NCBI GenBank assembly: GCA_023957315.1
Contig: JAMLHE010000005.1
Coordinates: forward strand, 169,132-233,131
Length of the DNA: 64,000 nt
Direction of reading: 5' to 3'
Source of the DNA: Candidatus Kapaibacterium sp.
Lineage (GTDB): Bacteria > Bacteroidota > Ignavibacteria > Kapaibacteriales > UBA2268
How positions within the stretch are numbered: position 1 is the stretch's first letter; each line of letters begins with the position of its first letter. Made by a program: the position numbers and the translations under genes. Of this stretch, positions 2,371 through 46,104 are shown piece after piece. The notes under the pieces were generated by a model. The model was not told where the DNA came from and did not search any database. It saw nothing but the letters and a program-made list of their open reading frames with translations.

Positions 2371-2499
2371 GTAACTCCTAAAAGTATATATAAAAATTTT
2401 TTCGTAAGAAAAATCGGTAAGTCATTTCGATTTGGCGGTACCAATTTCTCATTACGTTTGTTTACGCAAACGCTGTGTCAAATTACACTCCAATGAGTA

Positions 2500-2645
2500 T
2501 CGTCGAGTCTGTCTTCTGGCTTCGGTATCAACCTTTGCAACTTGCCTTCCCACCTAATCCGGTAGTGGCTGTCTTCCGACATAAGTTGCATCGTACTCCG
2601 TTACAGCGGCGTAACCGCACAGGATTCTCACCTGTTTCCTAAAAC
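2500..2645 (-). promoter_or_regulatory. Cobalamin (AdoCbl) riboswitch, oriented toward the gene starting at 2370 (minus)
   Basis: The minus-strand RNA reads AGGAAAC-AGGUGAGAAUCC-UGU-GCGGUUACGCCGC-UGUAACGG ... GCCACUACC (B12 box) ... GGUGGGAAGGC. Order and spacing match the cobalamin riboswitch consensus (AGGGAA / GGUGnnAAnUCC / GCGGnCCGC-ACUGUaA / GCCACUG / GGGAAGGC). The plus-strand coordinates of these blocks are 2634-2640, 2622-2632, 2598-2610, 2561-2569 and 2544-2551. Confidence 0.7.
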
Positions 2646-2827
2646 ATTTTCATGCTTTTTCACTCAACGACGCATACAAATATAATCAAAATTGTAATTT
2701 TTTCGACTTTAATTTGTTTATTACAATATGAAATGTGCAAATTTTTCTTTTGGTTATGTAAAGAAATGCACTTATTTTGAAATTTGCTAAATTTGAAAAT
2801 GAAGTTTTTAATTTTAATGGTAACAAT

Positions 2828-5608
2828 ATGAAACAATATGTCGTTTATTCTCGAATTATTTCTCTAATACTAACATTTATTTTACTCAGCTTACCCTCTT
2901 ACGCCAAAAAGCCGTTTACATTAGACGATGCGATGAAATTCAAGTCACTCCACAGTCCGGTTATCAGCGAAAACGGTTTTTGGGTGGCATATCACGTCTC
3001 ACCTGACAGAGGCGACCCAATCGGCTACATTCAATCCACAACTGATTCATCAAAATTTGAAATCGAAAGAGCCACTCGACCGGTTTTTTCACGTGACGAT
3101 GTCTATACAGGCTTTACGTGGGTGCCAAAATCACTCGAAGTGGAGAATGCAAAAACACCCAAAGACAAGCCCAAAAATGGCTTTGTATTAGTTAAAAATA
3201 CGACCGGAAGGATTGACAAAATCAAAGATGTCAAAAGTTTCGAGTTTTCCGAAGATTCAAAGTGGTGTGTATATCACAAGTTTGGGGATGAAGATAAAAA
3301 AAGCGAAAAATTGAAAAAGAAGCCAATTGGCTCTGAACTTGTGATTAGGCACTTATTCTCACAAACTGAAATTCGGGTGGATTACGTTACCGAATATGCT
3401 TTGGATAGTGCTGGCACATACATTTTTTATAGTGTTTCATCACCTGATGGCGAACGTGACGGCTTATACTTGCGGAGACTTCTCGAAGTATTTGCACCGG
3501 AATTTGCTGTAAACAAAGCCGAAAACACACTCTATTCGGGATTGGCATGGACTCCCCATACCAAAGCATTGGGATATATTTCCTCAACATTGACGACTGA
3601 AGGTGTTCCCAAAGAAGGCACTTTGATGATTTGGGAAGAAATCAGGGCTCAACAATATCAAATTGCTGTGACCCCTCAAACTGCTCCAAAGGGTTGGTAT
3701 ATACCATACAATAACAAAACCAAATGGAGCGATGATGGTCTGAGTCTTTTCATCGGGCTAAAACCTGATGCCGAGCGTGACACAATCGAAACTAAAGCAA
3801 TCATCTACACTGATGACTCTTTCTACAACATTGATTCGGTATTGACTAAATCTTCGGAGTTCATCTGGCATTGGGATGACCCACTTATCAGCTCCAATCA
3901 AGTTAATTGGTGGAATAAGAGCAAGGATAGAACTTTTACATCAGTGTATAATCTCCGTTCAAAAAGGTTCTTCCAACTGGCAGATTCGTCTTGCAATAAT
4001 GTCGTTGCTGCCGACAATTCAATTTACACAATTGGCTACGACAACACTCCTTACCAAAAGGAAATCACCTACAAGGGCTGGTTTTTCGATTTGTATGTAT
4101 TCAATTTGCAAACAGGAACCAAGAAAAAAATAGCGACAAGACTTGCCGAACAAGCATATTTGTCACCTCAAGGAAAACATGTATTGTTTTTCCAAAATAA
4201 ACATTGGCATATTTATGACACAAATAAAGATTCTTTAGCAAACATAACTATAAATGTCCCTATACCATTTTATGATGTTGACAACGATATTCCTGCCGAA
4301 GCCGGCAGCTACGGTATTGGAGGTTGGTTTCAAGATGACAATTATGTTTTGATCAACGAAAAATATGATTTCTACAAATTTTTCACTACAGATCCGGGTT
4401 CATTCATAAATATGTCTGGAACTTACGGACGCAAAAATCAACTACAATACCGATATACAAATTTAGACCCGAGAAATAAAGCTATATTGAATAAAGATAC
4501 CTTTTACGTGCATGTGTATTCGGAAAAGTCCAAATCTACAAACATGTTCTTTTTCGAGGAGCATATTGCAGGTGGTATCAACGTTACAACAGAAACCGGA
4601 AGGGGATTTTACGAGGAAAAGACATTCAAAATCCTTGGCAGGTCAAAAAATAACAAGTTGATTTTCTCACGAGAAAGTTTTGACGAATTTCCCGATATTT
4701 GGTTTACTGATAATCCAATGCTTGACAATCCAATAAGAATCACTGATATTAATCCTCAGATGAAGGATTTAAAATGGGGTACAACAGAAATTGTGAGATG
4801 GGTCTCACCACTGGGAGATTCATTAGATGGGTATATTATCAAACCCGACAATTTCGACCCCAAAAAGAAATATCCTGTGCTTGTGTATTATTACGAGCGA
4901 TTTTCTTCGAGAACATTTACATTTTACCAACCGCGAGTAAATCATCGCCCGATTTATCAATTATATCTGTCTGACGATTACTTAGTCTTTGTACCGGATG
5001 TTGTTTACAAAACGGGACGCCCGGGATATGATGCAACCGATGCTATTCTTTCGGGACTCAAAGTGCTGATTGACCGTGGAATTGCTGACCCCGATAGACT
5101 TTGTATTCAAGGGCATTCATGGGCAGGATACCAAACAGCATTTGTTATCACCCAAACGGATATGTTCAAAGCTGCGTCAGCAGGAGCTCCTGTAGGCAAT
5201 ATGACGAGTGCTTATAGTCAGATAAGAACCGAAAGCGGGCTTGCCCGACAATTCCAATACGAATCTCAGCAAAGCCGTATCGGTGGGAACTTGTGGGATT
5301 CTTTGGATGCTTATATGAATAATTCACCAGTGTTTCTTGCCCCAAAAATCAACACGCCTCTATTGATTTTACATGGAAACGAAGATGAAGCAGTCCCTTT
5401 TTCGCAAGGGGTAGAAATGTATCTTGCACTCAGAAGATTAGACAAACCTTGTGTGCTCGTAGAATACAACAAAGAGCCTCACCATCCAAGAAAATACGAA
5501 AACAAATTGGATTGGCAAATTAAAATGAAAGAGTGGTTCGACCACTACGTTTTGGGCAAAGAAGCTCCGAAATGGATTAAAGACGGCAAACCGTATTACG
5601 GGAAATAG
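2828..5608 (+). CDS. Prolyl oligopeptidase family (S9) serine peptidase with N-terminal beta-propeller, secreted
   Basis: C-terminal alpha/beta-hydrolase domain with GHSWAGY (GxSxG nucleophile), LHGNEDEAVPF (Asp) and EPHHP (His). Track ORF starts at 2777, but the signal peptide MKQYVVYSRIISLILTFILLSLPSYA begins at the ATG at 2828, which is the more likely start. Confidence 0.85.
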   Translation: MKQYVVYSRIISLILTFILLSLPSYAKKPFTLDDAMKFKSLHSPVISENGFWVAYHVSPDRGDPIGYIQSTTDSSKFEIERATRPVFSRDDVYTGFTWVPKSLEVENAKTPKDKPKNGFVLVKNTTGRIDKIKDVKSFEFSEDSKWCVYHKFGDEDKKSEKLKKKPIGSELVIRHLFSQTEIRVDYVTEYALDSAGTYIFYSVSSPDGERDGLYLRRLLEVFAPEFAVNKAENTLYSGLAWTPHTKALGYISSTLTTEGVPKEGTLMIWEEIRAQQYQIAVTPQTAPKGWYIPYNNKTKWSDDGLSLFIGLKPDAERDTIETKAIIYTDDSFYNIDSVLTKSSEFIWHWDDPLISSNQVNWWNKSKDRTFTSVYNLRSKRFFQLADSSCNNVVAADNSIYTIGYDNTPYQKEITYKGWFFDLYVFNLQTGTKKKIATRLAEQAYLSPQGKHVLFFQNKHWHIYDTNKDSLANITINVPIPFYDVDNDIPAEAGSYGIGGWFQDDNYVLINEKYDFYKFFTTDPGSFINMSGTYGRKNQLQYRYTNLDPRNKAILNKDTFYVHVYSEKSKSTNMFFFEEHIAGGINVTTETGRGFYEEKTFKILGRSKNNKLIFSRESFDEFPDIWFTDNPMLDNPIRITDINPQMKDLKWGTTEIVRWVSPLGDSLDGYIIKPDNFDPKKKYPVLVYYYERFSSRTFTFYQPRVNHRPIYQLYLSDDYLVFVPDVVYKTGRPGYDATDAILSGLKVLIDRGIADPDRLCIQGHSWAGYQTAFVITQTDMFKAASAGAPVGNMTSAYSQIRTESGLARQFQYESQQSRIGGNLWDSLDAYMNNSPVFLAPKINTPLLILHGNEDEAVPFSQGVEMYLALRRLDKPCVLVEYNKEPHHPRKYENKLDWQIKMKEWFDHYVLGKEAPKWIKDGKPYYGK

Positions 5609-17575: not shown

Positions 17576-19840
17576 ATGGAGTTTAATATGCATCATTTCA
17601 AGTACCTTATTTCCGCATTAGCACTTGTTGCTTTTTTGTTCGTTTCATGCAGCGACAATTCGTCAAGCCCGGCTTTGACCGAAGATTTCACAGGTTTTGT
17701 GAAAAATTCCGAAGACCAAGCAATTGAAAATGCAAATATCGAAATATTCGGTTTGGAAGACAAATTGATTGCGAGCGATATCACAGATAAAGATGGCAAA
17801 TTCACTCTGACATCAATCCCAATCAAAAAGGAAGGATTGACTTACAGAGTCAGACATGCCGAATATGCCACAATCTCCGGAGACTTTGAAACATTTTACA
17901 ATGCACATAAATCTGAAGCCGGAAAATCTCCCGTTGTTTTCAAACTCCTTCAAGAAGATTCTTGCTGCGGAGATATGACCGTTCAAGTTTTAGATTATGA
18001 ATCCGGCGACCCGCTCGAAAATGTCGAAGTGAAAATTTCAAGAGGAAACGAATGGAGCGAAAAGAAATATACTGATGGCGAAGGCGTGCAAAACTTTGGT
18101 GCATTATGTGCCGGCAAACATTGGCTCAGATTCGCTCTCGAAGGCTACCAAGTAGTTGAAGATTATTTTGAAATCGTTGAGTGCGACACTTTGAATTTGA
18201 CAATTAAAATGAAAATCAAAGATGCTGATGAATGTTGCAACAACATTCTAAATTTCGTTGTCACAGATAAAGATGGAAATGCAATCAGCAATGCCAAAGT
18301 GAACTTATATCGTGATGGCAAGTTAGTAAAAGACGATAAAACTAATGAAGATGGCAAACTTACTTATAGCGAATTATGCAAAGGTAAATATACATTCGCT
18401 ATTTTAAAAGATAGCTACAAAGGAATTGAAGGATATCAAATCTTTGATTGTGAAGAAAATGTTACCGTTAACAAAACTTTAAGCAAGGAAGAAAACTTAG
18501 AATGTTGCGACAATACTTTAAATTTCATAATCAGTGATGAAAATGGCAATGCAATTAAGGACGCAAAAATCATACTTTACCGCAATGGTAAGGCTGTTCA
18601 TGATGGTAAAACAGATGACAATGGCAAAATCACTTTTGCTGAACTTTGCAAAGGAAAATATACCTATGCCATCCAAAAAGACACTTACAAAGGTGTTGAG
18701 GGATATCAAATTTTTGATTGCAAAGAAAACATTACAGTTGAAAAAACTTTGTATAAAGGCAATAATGAAGCATGTTGCGATAACAAATTGACTATTTTTG
18801 TCGGCGATGACGCCAATAATCCTTTAGCTAATGCAACAGTACTGCTTTACCGTGATGGGAAAGTTGCAAAAGAAGGGAAAACCGGCAATGACGGTTATGT
18901 TTATTTCGCTGAACTTTGCAAAGGAAAATATAGTATATTAATCAAGAGCGAAGGTTTCAAACCGTTTGAATTCCATCATACTTTCGGATGCGAAGAAGAT
19001 ATTAAATACAATAAGACTTTGGTTAAAGACCAAGGCGAAGATTGTTGCGGAGTGTTGAAATTGACTGTAATTGATAAAACTACAAACACTCCAATTGCCA
19101 ACGCAGAAGTCAAAATCACACGCGCTGATAATAAATTCTACGACATTAAGAAAAGCGGCAATGACGGTAGTGTCGAATTCACTAAGCTTTGCATGAGCAA
19201 ATACTGGGTTCGCGTAGCTGCTGAAAATTACAAAGTTGTTGAAGATTATGTTTATATCGAAAATTGCGATAAAGCTGTTGAAAAAACTATCAAATTGGAA
19301 TCAAAAAACAACACTGAATGTTGCGACAACACTATCAATTTTATCGTAAAAGATGCCGATGGCAATCCTTTGAGCGGAGTTAAAATCAAGTTGATTAAAG
19401 ACAATACAGTAAAGAAAACTTTGGAAACGCAAAACGGTACCGCTTCTACAGGCAAAATCATGTGCAAAGGAAGCTATAAAGTTGTGATGATGAAAGAAGG
19501 CTATCAAACAATTGAATTTCAAACAAGCGTAAATTGCAACGAAGACATCACAATTGATAAAAAACTCGAAGGTGGAAAATGTTGCGATGCTCAAATCAAA
19601 ATCGCTGTTAAAGATGCCGATTCTGAAGAATCGTTAAACGGTGCTAAGGTCAGACTTTGGAAAGATGGCAAAGTTGAACGCGAAGGTACAGTCGAAAACG
19701 GCTACGTTTGGTTTAAAGAACTCTGCGAAGGCAAATACGGCGTTGACATTATGTACGAAGGATACAATGGAATGGAATTCCAGTATGAAATCAGTTGCAA
19801 AAATGACAATTATTTAGTAAAGAAATTGAGCAAAAAATAA
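17576..19840 (+). CDS. Lipoprotein made of ~7-8 tandem Cys-containing CarboxypepD_reg-like repeats
   Basis: Lipobox LFVSC. About 90-aa repeats with the pattern CCDN-LNF-V-D-DGN-I-AK--LYRDGK...DGK-TF-ELCKGKY...GYQIFDC-EN-TV-KTL, with four conserved Cys per repeat. Confidence 0.7.
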   Translation: MEFNMHHFKYLISALALVAFLFVSCSDNSSSPALTEDFTGFVKNSEDQAIENANIEIFGLEDKLIASDITDKDGKFTLTSIPIKKEGLTYRVRHAEYATISGDFETFYNAHKSEAGKSPVVFKLLQEDSCCGDMTVQVLDYESGDPLENVEVKISRGNEWSEKKYTDGEGVQNFGALCAGKHWLRFALEGYQVVEDYFEIVECDTLNLTIKMKIKDADECCNNILNFVVTDKDGNAISNAKVNLYRDGKLVKDDKTNEDGKLTYSELCKGKYTFAILKDSYKGIEGYQIFDCEENVTVNKTLSKEENLECCDNTLNFIISDENGNAIKDAKIILYRNGKAVHDGKTDDNGKITFAELCKGKYTYAIQKDTYKGVEGYQIFDCKENITVEKTLYKGNNEACCDNKLTIFVGDDANNPLANATVLLYRDGKVAKEGKTGNDGYVYFAELCKGKYSILIKSEGFKPFEFHHTFGCEEDIKYNKTLVKDQGEDCCGVLKLTVIDKTTNTPIANAEVKITRADNKFYDIKKSGNDGSVEFTKLCMSKYWVRVAAENYKVVEDYVYIENCDKAVEKTIKLESKNNTECCDNTINFIVKDADGNPLSGVKIKLIKDNTVKKTLETQNGTASTGKIMCKGSYKVVMMKEGYQTIEFQTSVNCNEDITIDKKLEGGKCCDAQIKIAVKDADSEESLNGAKVRLWKDGKVEREGTVENGYVWFKELCEGKYGVDIMYEGYNGMEFQYEISCKNDNYLVKKLSKK

Positions 19841-30646: not shown

Positions 30647-30719
<73 letters not shown>

Positions 30720-42644: not shown

Positions 42645-42677
42645 GCCCCGTCCCGTCAGGTGTTACACCTGACGGGA
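42645..42677. repeat. GC-rich hairpin related to hairpin-1 module of the 156-bp repeat
   Basis: cccgtcaggtg-ttaca-cacctgacggg followed by gtctgaactatg (compare the repeat's atctgaactatc). Confidence 0.5.
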
Positions 42678-42849
42678 TGGTTAGTCTGAACTATGATTTA
42701 CATGATTTTGGTGATTAAGACGATGAATATAAATACAAACACCACATTATAAAACTTTGGAGTTAGACTTCGGAAGTCTTTATAATTAACTTCAAGATGC
42801 TTATTAAATTCATCTATTTTGAAAATTAGACTTCCGAAGTCTTCATCTG

Positions 42850-44481
42850 TCACATCTTCACAAACATCTGCGTCCGGCTGCTGATACGTATGTAATACAC
42901 ACCACGAGAGAGATGCGAAATATCAATTCTTAAATTCCCGCTCCCTGAGCCTGTCGAAGGGAGACGGGTGAGGTTCACACATTCACCAAGAGTGTTGTAG
43001 ATTTTAATTTCAGCAGTTTCATCAACCCCACGGTTAACCGTAGGGTTGATAGCAGCATTAATTTCAATATATTCGCTTGCCGGATTGGGGTGGATAAAGG
43101 ATACAGAGTTTGACTCGCTTACGCTTACATTGTTCAAGGTCGTGAAATTCCATGTTGGTGACCAAATCATTTTTTTGTTATGGCGGAGACCGACGCGCCA
43201 AAAATAACTCGTAAGATATTTAAAATCATTTAAAGTCAATTGATTTGATTTAAGATTCCCTTGATAAAAGATATTTTGGAAATTATTATCCTCAGCAATT
43301 TGGAAGTGATATGAATCTAATTGTGACGAAGGTTCCCACTCAAAATTTATTTCATCGCTTTTTTGTTGACTTCCATGGACGGGAGTTGTTAGCCGGATTG
43401 ATGCGGGTATAGGCTGAAATTTAAAAAACATCCCTTCATATTTATATATATTGCCGTACCACGTACCCACTACCGGCTTCTTGCCTGCCCAATCAATGCG
43501 CATGGTTAATGGTGCTTCGTCTATCATCTGCTGTGGTAATGGATGATAGTTCCAAGTATTACCCCCATCATTAGTCATAACAATTTTACCATACTGACCA
43601 ACTGCGACACCATTCAATTCATCATAAAATTTAATTGATTGAAGACCAAATTTTGGCTCAACAATTGTGTCAAGCACAGCGACCCAATTTTTACCTCTGT
43701 CTCGAGTTCGGTAAATTACATCTGACCGATAATGTGCTATACCAAGCAGTTCACTACCAACCAAAAAAGCTATACTGTCATTAACAATATCTAATTCTCT
43801 AAAACCTAAATATGTAGAATCAACTTTAAAATCACATAATCTCACCCAATTTTGAGTTTTAATATTAAAATTTACATACTGTTTAGAAAAATTATCGCCC
43901 GTTTTAGCTAAAACATAAAACCCTAAAGTTTCCTCATTAACTTTATCAATGCAATATATTTCGCTTCGTATAAGCATGGTATCGGCTATTGTATAAGTTT
44001 CCCACCCGTCTTCTGTTATATAAATATAGTGATGAAATGTATCATCAGACCATTGTGTATCTGTAATAATTCCACGCAAAGAATCAAACATAAAAATATT
44101 AATTGGGTTAGAATCTTCTGCAATTAAGATTTTACTAAATGATTTACCACGGTCTGTACTCTTTGTTACATATTTCCCTTCCGAGAAAATTGCGAAATAA
44201 TTGTCTTTATCGGGTGCGGAAAAATCACGTATATTCAGTAAATATTTAGGTTCTTCATTCATTGGGTCCGCTTTATAGGTCAAAGACCAAGTATCACCAG
44301 CATCATAGCTATGATAAAGCTCTATTAGTCCGGTTTGCTGAACCACAGATACGCACATCCCATCAAAGCATACCAAAGGATTAATTTGTCCCGTATCTAA
44401 ATTCTTTGTATATTTCCATTCAGAAGCATATGTAGCTATTCTTGCAATGAATAGTAAGAATATTATAATTAGTAGTTTCAT
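42850..44481 (-). CDS. Secreted BNR-repeat/FN3 protein with T9SS C-terminal sorting domain
   Basis: Signal peptide. Asp-box repeats (STDRGKSF, TRDRGKNW, TNDGGNTW). C-terminus ...FIHPNPASEYIEINA...GVYYIRISSRTQMFVKM. Confidence 0.7.
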   Translation of the reverse strand: MKLLIIIFLLFIARIATYASEWKYTKNLDTGQINPLVCFDGMCVSVVQQTGLIELYHSYDAGDTWSLTYKADPMNEEPKYLLNIRDFSAPDKDNYFAIFSEGKYVTKSTDRGKSFSKILIAEDSNPINIFMFDSLRGIITDTQWSDDTFHHYIYITEDGWETYTIADTMLIRSEIYCIDKVNEETLGFYVLAKTGDNFSKQYVNFNIKTQNWVRLCDFKVDSTYLGFRELDIVNDSIAFLVGSELLGIAHYRSDVIYRTRDRGKNWVAVLDTIVEPKFGLQSIKFYDELNGVAVGQYGKIVMTNDGGNTWNYHPLPQQMIDEAPLTMRIDWAGKKPVVGTWYGNIYKYEGMFFKFQPIPASIRLTTPVHGSQQKSDEINFEWEPSSQLDSYHFQIAEDNNFQNIFYQGNLKSNQLTLNDFKYLTSYFWRVGLRHNKKMIWSPTWNFTTLNNVSVSESNSVSFIHPNPASEYIEINAAINPTVNRGVDETAEIKIYNTLGECVNLTRLPSTGSGSGNLRIDISHLSRGVYYIRISSRTQMFVKM

Positions 44482-44580
44482 TTTTACTCCAATCTCAAAA
44501 AGTTTTCAAACAAACACCCTAGTATGTATAAACAAGTGAAAATCATTTTTGTCACAAAAATATGCAAAATATTTTAAATA

Positions 44581-44718
44581 TCAGATGTGCCACACCTGTG
44601 CCGAGGTTATCTGAACTATCTCTTTCGTCATTCTGAGCGAAGCGAAGAATCCATGCCTTTATGAAATCTTGATTCTTCGCCTGCGGCTTCAGAATGACCA
44701 ACGGTTCGGACAAAACAG
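44581..44718. repeat. Copy A of ~156-bp structured intergenic repeat (MITE/REP-like)
   Basis: tcagatgtgccacacctg...atctgaactatctctttcgtcattctgagcgaagcgaagaatccatgcctttatgaaatcttgattcttcgcctgcggcttcagaatgacc... is near-identical to the copies at 45250 and 45406. Confidence 0.8.
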
Positions 44719-44979
44719 TTACAAATCTTTATAGACTTCATCGCGCTTGGAAATCTTTATAATTTCAATCGTTAGAATTTTATCTTGTATTGTATAAACA
44801 ATGCGGTATGAAGAAACGCGAATCCGATACAGATTTTCTTTGAGAATTAATTTTTTACAACCACGTGGTCTTGGATTTTTGGCTAAAGAAAAGATTTTCT
44901 CGTTAATAGATTCGAGAATATCAAGAGGCAATTTGTCGAGACTTTTGAGGGCTGTTTTCTTAATTAGAATCCGATACAT
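44719..44979 (-). CDS. RelE/ParE-family type II toxin
   Basis: 86 aa with the RelE/ParE pattern ...NPRPRGCKKLILKENLYRIRVSSYRIVYTIQDKILTIEIIKISKRDEVY. Overlaps the upstream antitoxin ORF by 20 nt. Confidence 0.8.
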   Translation of the reverse strand: MYRILIKKTALKSLDKLPLDILESINEKIFSLAKNPRPRGCKKLILKENLYRIRVSSYRIVYTIQDKILTIEIIKISKRDEVYKDL

Positions 44980-45193
44980 CCAATTTCTTCTTTTTCTTTA
45001 TGATGGATTCAATGCTCGATTTATAGTCAACAGATTCCTCATTTTTTAGAAGTTCGTAGGCAATGATATCCTGAATATCCTCGATGTATTCCAAAGTAAT
45101 TTTCTTTGGCGATTTCAGAGGAAGCAACAAATGGGTTTTTGCACCATTCTGGTCGGTTATAAAACTAATATCAGGCATAAGACTCCTTTTCAT
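44960..45193 (-). CDS. Antitoxin of the RelE/ParE module (small acidic protein)
   Basis: 77 aa, immediately upstream of and overlapping the toxin. Ile/Leu-rich N-terminal half and acidic C-terminus are typical of cognate antitoxins. Confidence 0.6.
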   Translation of the reverse strand: MKRSLMPDISFITDQNGAKTHLLLPLKSPKKITLEYIEDIQDIIAYELLKNEESVDYKSSIESIIKKKKKLDVSDSN

Positions 45194-45249
45194 TTTAAGA
45201 ATACTAAATCATCAAACGATATATCATATAAGATATTTCACATTAAATT

Positions 45250-45405
45250 TCAGATGTGACACACCTGCCAAGGTGATCTGAACAATCTCTTTCGTCATTC
45301 TGAGCGAAGCGAAGAATCCATGCCTTTATGAAATCTTGATTCTTCGCCTGCGGCTCAGAATGACCGGATGTTCGGACAGAACGCTGTTGCTGTCCTTACA
45401 AAGTA
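45250..45405. repeat. Copy B of ~156-bp structured repeat
   Basis: Three modules: hairpin tcagatgtgacacacctgccaaggtgatctga; long imperfect hairpin gtcattctgagcgaagcgaagaatc/gattcttcgcctgcggctcagaatgac; hairpin ggacagaacgctgttgctgtcc. Confidence 0.8.
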
Positions 45406-45562
45406 TCAGATGTGACACACCTGCCAAGGTGATCTGAACTATCTCTTTCGTCATTCTGAGCGAAGCGAAGAATCCATGCCTTTATGAAATCTTGATTCTT
45501 CGCCTGCGGCTTCAGAATGACCAACGGTTCGGACAGAACGCTGTTGCTATCCCTACAAAATT
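45406..45562. repeat. Copy C of ~156-bp structured repeat (tandem to copy B)
   Basis: Same three-hairpin architecture; period 156 bp relative to copy B. Confidence 0.8.
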
Positions 45563-45599
45563 TCAGATGGACTCCACCTCGCAGGTGGAGTCCATCTAA
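45563..45599. repeat. Truncated repeat unit: perfect 16-bp hairpin, likely also the leuD terminator
   Basis: tcagatggactccacctg-cg-caggtggagtccatct starts with the repeat's tcagatg. Lies 4 nt downstream of the leuD stop. Confidence 0.6.
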
Positions 45600-45603
45600 G
45601 CCA

Positions 45604-46104
45604 CTAACTTATTCCCAACTTTTGCTTCAGTTTTAAGCGGCTGTAGGGTATTAAGCCACCCGCTTCGACGATTGCACGGCGAGCTTCGGGTAATGGAATT
45701 ATCGGATGTGTTGTTCCGCGTGTTTGGTTCACGACTTTGTCGTCATGAATTTCCAAATTGTCTCCGGCGTATGCTTCAATATCAGGGCAAATGATGGTTC
45801 GCAAACCAAGATTGATAGCATTTTGCAAAAAGATACGTGCAAAATCTTTGGCGATTATAATCACATTGTGCCCGACTAAGGTAGAAGCGGCTTGTTCGCG
45901 CGATGAACCGCACCCGAAATTATTTCCGGCAACAAGGATAGATTGCTCGTCGGCAGATTTGCCATTGAGCAACTGATTGAGGTCTTTCATATCATCGAAG
46001 GCATATTGCGGCGTTTCAGTTGGCAATACAGTCGCCATGTATCTTCCCGGATAAATTATATCGGTAGAAATATCATCTTCCAATTTATAAATCACTTTGA
46101 GCAT
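45604..46104 (-). CDS. leuD: 3-isopropylmalate dehydratase small subunit (short, type-2 LeuD/aconitase swivel domain)
   Basis: 166 aa; pattern DDISTDIIYPGRY...GCGSSREQA is typical of LeuD-type subunits; adjacent to leuC. Confidence 0.75.
   Translation of the reverse strand: MLKVIYKLEDDISTDIIYPGRYMATVLPTETPQYAFDDMKDLNQLLNGKSADEQSILVAGNNFGCGSSREQAASTLVGHNVIIIAKDFARIFLQNAINLGLRTIICPDIEAYAGDNLEIHDDKVVNQTRGTTHPIIPLPEARRAIVEAGGLIPYSRLKLKQKLGIS

Follow-up and report, generated by a model that had tools for sequence, protein, structure and literature searches.

A 156-nt hairpin repeat beside leuD in Candidatus Kapaibacterium: a probable local mosaic with an Ssn-related core

We analyzed a 64,000-nt stretch of DNA from Candidatus Kapaibacterium sp. 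(contig JAMLHE010000005.1, positions 169,132 to 233,131; this whole stretch is called the window below) in which copies of a 156-nt unit, each with three hairpins, lie on both sides of a toxin-antitoxin cassette next to the gene leuD. Our explanation, to which we assign a probability of about 0.8, is that the unit is composed, as a mosaic, of three hairpin modules unrelated to one another and was duplicated at the locus, and that its core, a 72-nt head-to-head pair of 25-28-nt arms, is a dimer of hairpin repeats related to those associated with the Ssn nucleases, which are single-domain GIY-YIG proteins. The association of such repeats with a GIY-YIG nuclease was already published in 2025, and the core of the window unit is a variant member of this known family. 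An earlier note on the same DNA had compared the unit to a miniature inverted-repeat transposable element (MITE), to the attC site of a cassette array and to a small-RNA gene family; that interpretation is partly supported: it applies only to the core module. That repeat units bracket the toxin-antitoxin cassette is confirmed.

Layout of the repeat array

The units in the window are the following:

44581-44718, unit A, a truncated copy
45250-45405, unit B, in tandem with unit C
45406-45561, unit C, in tandem with unit B

By alignment, the pairwise identities are 93.3% (A-B), 97.0% (A-C) and 94.8% (B-C). The earlier note had counted three full copies; three units there are, but unit A is not full length, its module 3 being degenerate and merging into the 3' end of the toxin cassette. 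The exact 156-nt period of the last two copies, also claimed there, is borne out both by the sequence and by a repeat search, in which units B and C have a start-to-start spacing of exactly 156 nt. Likewise, each of the three modules described for the unit is found in its place; the natural phasing of the repeat along the minus (gene) strand has hairpin 1 first, then the spacer, module 3 and module 2. The modules and the hairpin that follows them are:

44581-44614, minus strand, module 1 of unit A: imperfect hairpin of a degraded AGATG...CATCT type, downstream of the toxin gene
44627-44698, strandless, module 2 of unit A: head-to-head arm dimer, CGTC-tagged/Ssn-type, with a 19-nt loop; left arm 44627-44651 (forward on the plus strand), right arm 44671-44698 (forward on the minus strand)
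44699-44718, minus strand, module 3 of unit A: degenerate; overlaps the 3' boundary of the portable toxin-antitoxin block
45250-45281, minus strand, module 1 of unit B: imperfect hairpin immediately upstream of the toxin-antitoxin block
45294-45364, strandless, module 2 of unit B: arms 45294-45318 (plus) and 45338-45364 (minus)
45374-45395, minus strand, module 3 of unit B: hairpin GGACAGAACGCTGTTGCTGTCC
45406-45437, minus strand, module 1 of unit C
45450-45521, strandless, module 2 of unit C: arms 45450-45474 (plus) and 45494-45521 (minus)
45531-45552, minus strand, module 3 of unit C
45563-45599, minus strand, leuD-proximal hairpin: intact module-1 type, 4 nt downstream of the leuD stop codon

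The last of these had been taken for a fourth unit reduced to a perfect hairpin abutting leuD. The perfect hairpin and its position are confirmed; it is, however, not a reduced unit but an intact module-1 form, the core of which (45565-45597) has 15-nt arms that are 100% complementary and a loop of 3 nt. It is also terminator-like, with 17 pairs that lead, on the leuD strand, into the T-rich sequence AATTTTG. Module 1 of unit A is related to this hairpin and to perfect hairpins at 3892-3925 and 4585-4617 of L125, a syntenic locus from a relative; module 3 of unit B is homologous to L125 3938-3956 and to positions 1029-1064 of L243, a locus from another relative.

The repeat is sharply localized within the window. 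The core 25-mer GTCATTCTGAGCGAAGCGAAGAATC occurs three times with no more than three mismatches (shuffles expect 0.00), and an 18-mer from module 1 also occurs three times (shuffles expect 0.02). When a covariance model of the arm is run unfiltered over the 64 kb, exactly six significant arms are found, all at the repeat locus; with model R1, the two arms score 43.8 bits (E = 2.4e-8) and 24.5 bits (E = 0.0011) in unit A, 43.8 and 31.2 bits in unit B, and 43.8 and 24.5 bits in unit C. A direct-repeat search of the window gives no further copy or fragment of the unit, and no target-site duplication is visible around the units. The earlier note had held that a repeat confined to this locus and free of flanking duplications would be a local duplication only; within the 64 kb this is what we find for the unit, although the core arm is widespread elsewhere.

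The units also generate spurious open reading frames (ORFs) of 42-53 aa that read ...ILRFAQNDE... (44552-44713, 45326-45454 and 45396-45524, minus strand). We take the arms of this family to be the likely source of the "RFARNDK"-type hypothetical peptides found in annotations.

The core arm and its nuclease partner

The arms of module 2 have the architecture (C/G)GTC-ATTCT-GA-[mini-hairpin]-GA-AGAAT-C, where the inner part is GC GAA GC or GCC GCA GGC; the window arm, written out, is CGTCATTCTGAGCGAAGCGAAGAATCCA, that is, CGTC-ATTCT...AGAAT-C-CA. The GTC is present in all six window arms, each of which ends in ...AGAAT-C; the tag is CGTC in the left arms, which also carry a CCA tail, and GGTC in the right arms. 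Across the family, the inner hairpin is free to differ in both sequence and length (7 to ~40 nt), and its common sequence, GCGNAGC, is a classic stable DNA mini-hairpin (PMC13037366).

Covariation supports the pairing. In a set of 88 distinct arms, six of the seven Watson-Crick pairs show compensatory changes (TTCT/AGAA, TCCT/AGGA, CCCT/AGGG, TGCT/AGCA and TTCC/GGAA in the outer stem; GC to AT in the inner stem), and the number of double-change cells is 80 versus 20.2 +/- 3.6 in shuffles, with none of 500 shuffles reaching 80. These arms were chosen for G9A10, G18A19 and a 5' GTCA, so their invariance at those positions is no evidence, and we read conservation from an unfiltered set of 148 distinct arms instead: G9 is found in 139, A10 in 143, G18 in 134 and A19 in 132, and G1, T2, C3 and A4 are found in 138, 131, 140 and 133, respectively; position 25 is C in 113 of the 148. 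The base that precedes GTC is T, C or A in 64 of 64 left flanks. Most arms are paired, one forward and one reverse, and the element boundaries are T/GTCA...TGAC/A (the slash marking the edge). The median loop of the short dimers is 29 nt, so the loops of 19-20 nt in the window are typical.

The arm is not peculiar to this genome. An arm 22-mer, CATTCTGAGCGAAGCGAAGAAT, matches exactly at least 120 stretches from species-representative genomes that span many phyla; the hosts among the matches listed include Nitrospirota, Acidobacteriota, Ignavibacteria, lineages of the candidate phyla radiation (CPR), Firmicutes, Bacteroidota, Chloroflexota, Cyanobacteria, Planctomycetes, Verrucomicrobia and Helicobacter. 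The same 22-mer is found in 36 viral contigs and in plasmids of cyanobacteria, Hymenobacter, Granulicella and others, every time unannotated; it is found in none of 5,426 complete E. coli genomes. The MITE-like character proposed in the earlier note holds for the central 72-nt module, a palindromic repeat dispersed across phyla, but not for the 156-nt composite, for which we found no sign of dispersal. Even for the module the resemblance to a classical MITE is incomplete: inverted arms are present, but the window lacks dispersed copies, and a search for direct repeats of 2-9 bp beside 64 dimers gives none above chance, that is, no target-site duplication.

The partner gene found for the arms encodes a GIY-YIG nuclease. 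Clustering of 257 ORFs located beside 133 arm matches yields no recurrent neighbor family; in an annotated Planktothrix plasmid, a 94-aa GIY-YIG gene is embedded in arm arrays. As a reciprocal test, we gathered 80 metagenome loci by similarity to the GIY-YIG protein alone. In these loci the arm density is 3.28/kb within 300 nt of the GIY-YIG gene versus 0.12/kb further off (27-fold), and the typical layout is a forward arm ~60 nt upstream, the GIY-YIG ORF and a reverse arm ~45 nt downstream. Six loci that seemed to be arm-less were inspected; in five of them the arms are present with long inner hairpins, and the sixth (L226) has a different, GTCA-type repeat.

The arm-flanked protein (~90 aa) is a bare GIY-YIG domain (Pfam PF01541) with the UPF0213 proteins 1zg2 and 1ywl as its nearest solved relatives; it is 47% identical to a 94-aa homologue from N. 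gonorrhoeae that is flanked by six copies of the NTS repeat. From the Pfam family, the UPF0213 structures and the identity to the Neisseria homologue, we would place it among the homologues of the Ssn nucleases, for which Neisseria and Wolbachia homologues provide the published biochemistry. Remoter GIY-YIG homologues, from Rhizobium and Spirosoma, have hairpins with a CGTC/TGTC tag but a different sequence at their flanks.

According to Chenal et al. (2025, Nat Commun 16:2388; PMC11893778), repeats termed NTS/SRM flank ssnA, a 94-aa single-domain GIY-YIG gene, in Neisseria, where the NTS repeat is CGTCATTCCCGCGMAVGCGGGAATCYRG; such motifs lie close to 71% of the ssnA homologues and on both flanks of 42%. 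The same paper reports that SsnA acts on single-stranded DNA (ssDNA) and not on RNA, that its binding requires the NTS hairpin to be ssDNA and in the forward orientation, with the cut falling a few nucleotides upstream, that cleavage depends critically on the three bases (GTC) that precede the palindrome and binding most of all on the C that follows it, and that the NTS-gene-NTS layout lowers transformation. The window-type family shares several of these features: a directional (C/T)GTC tag, a palindrome ATTC...GAAT and a trailing C (compare CGTCATTCCCGCGMAVGCGGGAATCYRG with the window arm CGTCATTCTGAGCGAAGCGAAGAATCCA); an intergenic location, clustered around genes; and the bracketing of ~94-aa single-domain GIY-YIG genes by repeats, re-derived here independently. 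Judged by the description of an SRM, the hairpin-forming inverted repeat of 20-50 nt is supported by covariation, the GTC of the HGTC tag is present in six of six window arms, and flanking of a GIY-YIG gene is found at the level of the family (the 80 loci) but not locally, in the window.

There are also differences. In the window-type arm, the stem is broken by two conserved tandem G.A pairs, which enclose the freely varying inner hairpin, and one and the same 22-mer recurs unchanged in many phyla (CPR lineages, Firmicutes and Cyanobacteria among them) and in viral contigs; neither this identity nor the presence in viruses, CPR lineages or Firmicutes is discussed in the main text of PMC11893778. 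The published SRM pattern, HGTCWYN(0-2)YYVSBRHN(0-5)WNVSBRGN(0-2)RNCYNB, is an operational search pattern and not a functional definition. It does match the Neisseria arms (six in 1.3 kb) and the Rhizobium arms, and it matches one of the 80 loci of the arm-flanked nuclease clade; because the two G.A pairs split the stem, it misses arms of the window type.

A second family to which the core may be compared is that of the CGTC-tagged repetitive extragenic palindromic (REP) sequences, which have a CGTC/TGTC tag, a stem starting with AT and a CCA tail, occur mostly as head-to-head dimers, are reported in Chlorobi and Bacteroidetes among other phyla and were described as being without a dedicated transposase or other enzyme, the Ssn link having come later (Di Nocera, De Gregorio and Rocco, 2013, BMC Genomics 14:522; PMC3733652). 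The tag, the AT start, the CCA tail (in the left arms) and the head-to-head dimers are shared with the window arms, as are the location downstream of genes and the interleaving with other repeat families in mosaic intergenic regions. However, the published stems are continuous (8-9 bp) with loops of 4-5 nt, whereas the stem of the window arm has 5 + 2 pairs (nine positions, two of them G.A) and a loop of 3 nt.

The REPIN-RAYT system and the BIMEs (Bertels and Rainey, 2011, PMC3116915; Nunvar, 2010; Ton-Hoang, 2012) provide a third comparison: here, too, two inverted short hairpins form one longer hairpin, non-autonomous copies far outnumber the copy that carries the gene, the partner enzyme recognizes ssDNA hairpins, and mosaics are formed with other motifs. 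In contrast, the tag in the window is GTC(A) and not GTAG, the partner of the window family is a GIY-YIG nuclease and not an HUH/Y1 transposase, and REPIN sequences are lineage-specific whereas the window arm is common to many phyla.

Several observations weigh against our explanation. The folding energy of a single arm, calculated with nearest-neighbor DNA parameters, is ~-3 kcal/mol and no better than that of shuffles, so the claim that the arm is a hairpin rests on covariation. The published SRM pattern matches none of the six window arms and none of 387 arms of the window type. The three right arms are preceded by G instead of the usual T, C or A (the H of HGTC), and those in units A and C have an extra base; the right arms may therefore be decayed. 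A tblastn search finds no ssn/GIY-YIG gene in the window, so a cognate enzyme in the source genome is hypothetical. The three dimers, the only ones in the 64 kb, all lie inside 1 kb and give no direct sign of dispersal within the source genome. Finally, presence/absence polymorphism with clean flanks was not found among the fetched loci, in which the indels are unrelated to the arms.

Three other observations concern the arm family. At 10 loci, truncated 5' half-arms (TGTCATTCTGAG followed by 8-12 variable bases) are repeated three to five times in tandem and adjoin full arms (L162 2380-2760 and 3040-3370; L001, L062, L082, L142, L159, L160, L201, L208 and L216); these arrays may be scars left where DNA was repeatedly cut and repaired close to the tag, or where replication slipped. 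In a Bacteroidales metagenome-assembled genome (L008 2750-2850), a full arm dimer lies in frame within a 453-aa ORF, which reads ...IEKAVILSEAKNLTAKDFQIDSSANGLRMTG...; the dimer may have been inserted into the gene, as has been reported for REPs and for Rickettsia palindromic elements. In Helicobacter marmotae (L050 2100-2950), a dense arm array has a different inner hairpin in each copy (e.g., CCCCTGATAAGGGG and GGGAGTGAAACGACC), whereas TGTCATTCTGA...GAAGAATCTC is constant across the copies; we considered whether this array is an rRNA intervening sequence and rejected the idea, as the absence of an Rfam match places it outside an rRNA operon.

Origin of the unit and what it might do

Comparison with relatives separates the modules. 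At the syntenic locus L125, leuD is followed by a perfect module-1-type hairpin, a spacer and module 3, and then by a small ORF and the same toxin-antitoxin pair; module 2 is absent there. The leuD-proximal hairpin of L125 differs from that of the window in its stem sequence, with complementarity kept. The module 3/spacer/module 1 stretch of the window aligns with L125 at 86%; the order of these pieces is thus ancestral, and module 2, together with its linkers, was added. Because relatives have modules 1 and 3 but lack module 2, the modules have separate histories; from these alignments, module 1, which is terminator-like, and module 3 appear to be hairpins specific to the lineage, found in relatives downstream of leuD and of cassette genes.

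The three copies in the window have the look of a local duplication. Module 2 has identical loop and linker junctions in all three, and the differences that are shared are mixed: in module 1, B is like C; in the right arm and the linker that follows it, A is like C. Segmental duplication or gene conversion among neighboring repeats explains this mixed pattern better than three separate insertions.

These observations also bear on the idea that the whole three-hairpin unit is a mobile MITE that transposed as one piece and was inserted on both sides of the toxin-antitoxin pair. Such an element would account for three copies with 93-97% identity and conserved junctions and for the terminal hairpin at both ends of the array, and the assembly contigs of relatives do break in nearby repeats. 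However, the window holds no further copies or fragments, module 2 is missing from relatives that have modules 1 and 3 at corresponding positions, and no target-site duplication is visible around the units; in addition, a 22-mer that spans the junction of modules 1 and 2 has no match in the JGI metagenome contigs, and the peptide encoded by the unit has no relative among 5.8 billion proteins. We therefore consider transposition of the composite to be very unlikely.

An RNA role for the units, either as a small-RNA gene family (as the earlier note had suggested) or as terminator or stabilizer hairpins in the 3' untranslated regions of leuD and the toxin-antitoxin genes, fits the fact that all of the units are downstream of genes on the coding (minus) strand; REP-type hairpins stabilize upstream mRNA in enterobacteria. 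The leuD-adjacent hairpin is terminator-like, and one whole unit folds well below shuffled controls (-48.4 kcal/mol, z = -3.75, on the plus strand; -52.2 kcal/mol, z = -3.35, on the minus strand). Nevertheless, a scan of 44400-45700 with Rfam 15 gives nothing beyond chance-level scores at E values up to 10, promoter-like sites are fewer than in shuffles, and module 2, being near-palindromic, folds equally well on both strands. The GTC tag, the strand-specific G.A pairs and a partner nuclease that, according to PMC11893778, acts on ssDNA and not on RNA all indicate that it is DNA that is recognized. A small-RNA family thus has no positive support, and we judge the RNA explanation as a whole to be very unlikely; a secondary effect as terminator or insulator is compatible with a duplicated mosaic that has an Ssn-related core.

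The least credible of the proposals is that the repeats are attC-like sites of an integron-type cassette array with the toxin-antitoxin pair as a cassette that was captured. Genes of this kind are typical cargo of integrons, and attC sites, like the window units, are structured imperfect inverted repeats beside small promoter-bearing cassettes and are recognized as folded single strands. Moreover, the toxin-antitoxin block (44705-45243) recurs with 94% DNA identity behind a different gene in another genome, and at L243 the block is followed by a HicBA-like pair, each pair ending with a module-3-like hairpin and ACATAGCCCATGAAT. Against this, RYYYAAC/GTTRRRY boxes (R''/R') are absent from both strands of 44561-45620. 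The earlier note had seen no integrase in the window, and a heuristic check agrees, in that no window ORF of at least 150 aa has the box motifs of tyrosine recombinases; no integrase is found within 10 kb upstream of the array in the relatives' loci L121 or L123 either. The repeat at the cassette ends of relatives consists of module 3 and other short hairpins and is too short (22 nt) for an attC site, and the module 2 family is tied to a GIY-YIG nuclease, that is, to a different enzyme family from IntI. The practical message is that the repeat is neither an integron site nor a small-RNA family and is most likely a locally duplicated mosaic.

For such a mosaic, a mechanism may be proposed. In this view the core 72-nt module is a gene-less head-to-head dimer of Ssn-related hairpin repeats (of the CGTC-tagged REP/Neisseria NTS kind), for which a cognate Ssn may be encoded elsewhere in the source genome. 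If that enzyme is present, the outer edge of each dimer would hold one site per strand that can be cut when the DNA becomes single-stranded, that is, in replication, transformation or conjugation. With dimers on either side, the ParE toxin-antitoxin block would then mimic the repeat-gene-repeat layout that lowers transformation in Neisseria, and the dimers could modulate recombination of the cassette. The hairpins may also terminate or insulate transcription, as the terminator-like hairpin next to leuD suggests.

A bolder possibility, which we hold tentatively and consider unlikely as it stands, is that arm-ssn-arm is a self-propagating element, like an insertion sequence, that moves between phyla with the gene-less dimers as its passengers; its carriers would include CPR bacteria, Firmicutes, cyanobacterial plasmids and phages. 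Movement of this kind would explain why an identical 22-mer occurs in at least 120 stretches of species genomes. The dimers in the window would then be marks for single-strand cutting and would govern whether the cassette is lost, replaced or exchanged in the course of transformation or replication, as with NTS-gene-NTS in Neisseria.

The assignment of the core places it in a family whose enzyme partner was identified only in 2025, and it extends that family in three ways: by an arm architecture that escapes the published pattern, its two G.A pairs being conserved and its inner hairpin variable; by a nuclease clade that is bracketed by these G.A-interrupted arms; and by hosts well beyond the Pseudomonadati emphasized so far, viral contigs included. 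For the use of Ssn enzymes as ssDNA tools, the clade could offer a new and well-defined candidate recognition sequence, e.g., TTTGTCATTCTGAGCGAAGCGAAGAATCTC. The arms are unlabeled in public records; the assignment explains the odd local repeat and the "ILRFAQNDE"-type junk ORFs of the window, and probably does likewise for many genome annotations.

The toxin-antitoxin block and its surroundings

The genes at the array are:

44719-44979, minus strand, ParE/RelE-family toxin of 86 aa (Pfam PF05016, E = 5.7e-11)
44960-45193, minus strand, putative antitoxin of 77 aa (ORF in the antitoxin position; overlaps the start of the toxin gene by 20 nt)
45604-46104, minus strand, leuD-like small subunit (Pfam Aconitase_C, E = 2e-13), outside the repeat and given for context

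As the earlier note had stated, the toxin and the overlapping 77-aa ORF are the only genes between units A and B. The 77-aa putative antitoxin has no Pfam match; it is conserved alongside the toxin at L121, L125 and L243. An exact-protein look-up gives no record identical to the window toxin or LeuD. Toxin homologues that are 94-96% identical occupy other genomic contexts. The block comprises 539 bp (44705-45243), homology to L121 and L243 beginning at 44705; in another genome (L121/L123) it is found, at 94% DNA identity, behind a carboxyltransferase gene. Its recurrence in these other contexts (L121/L123 and L243) shows that the cassette is portable by itself; the blocks at L121/L123 and L243 have no module 2 at their flanks. 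Otherwise, the genes around the locus encode ordinary housekeeping or secreted proteins.

In the Kapabacteria relatives, a HicBA-like toxin-antitoxin pair comes after the ParE block (L243 1-1079; also L121 9700-10299 and L123), and each cassette ends with a module-3-like hairpin and the common sequence ACATAGCCCATGAAT(TTATTCGTGGG). Three assembly contigs terminate within the ACATAGCCCATGAAT repeat. These cassettes resemble a small toxin-antitoxin array with end repeats of its own, and no integrase is found within 10 kb.

The spacer between the genes for an S41 peptidase and a type IX secretion system (T9SS) protein contains two further features: a hairpin, CCGTCCCGTCAGGTGT/ACACCTGACGGGATGG, at 42648-42680, and a segment of ~110 nt bounded by AGACTTCGGAAGTCT palindromes at 42764-42875. 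Both recur in the inter-cassette spacers of L125 and L243 with 87-94% identity, so the interval from the S41 peptidase gene to leuD is a variable hotspot of shared short modules. At L125 4625-4702, the T9SS protein is represented by a remnant of its C-terminal sorting domain (...GVYYIRIGSQTQMFVKI, followed by a stop), immediately upstream of the toxin-antitoxin pair, and the rest of the gene is gone, which suggests deletion or rearrangement at the hotspot.

Elsewhere in the window, the only two Rfam matches are a cobalamin riboswitch (2489-2682, minus strand, 66.5 bits) and a tRNA (30647-30719, plus strand). Four diverged copies of a 54-nt sequence, 270-534 nt apart, are found at 18607-19737, inside a 754-aa ORF (17576-19840); these most likely represent a repeated protein domain.

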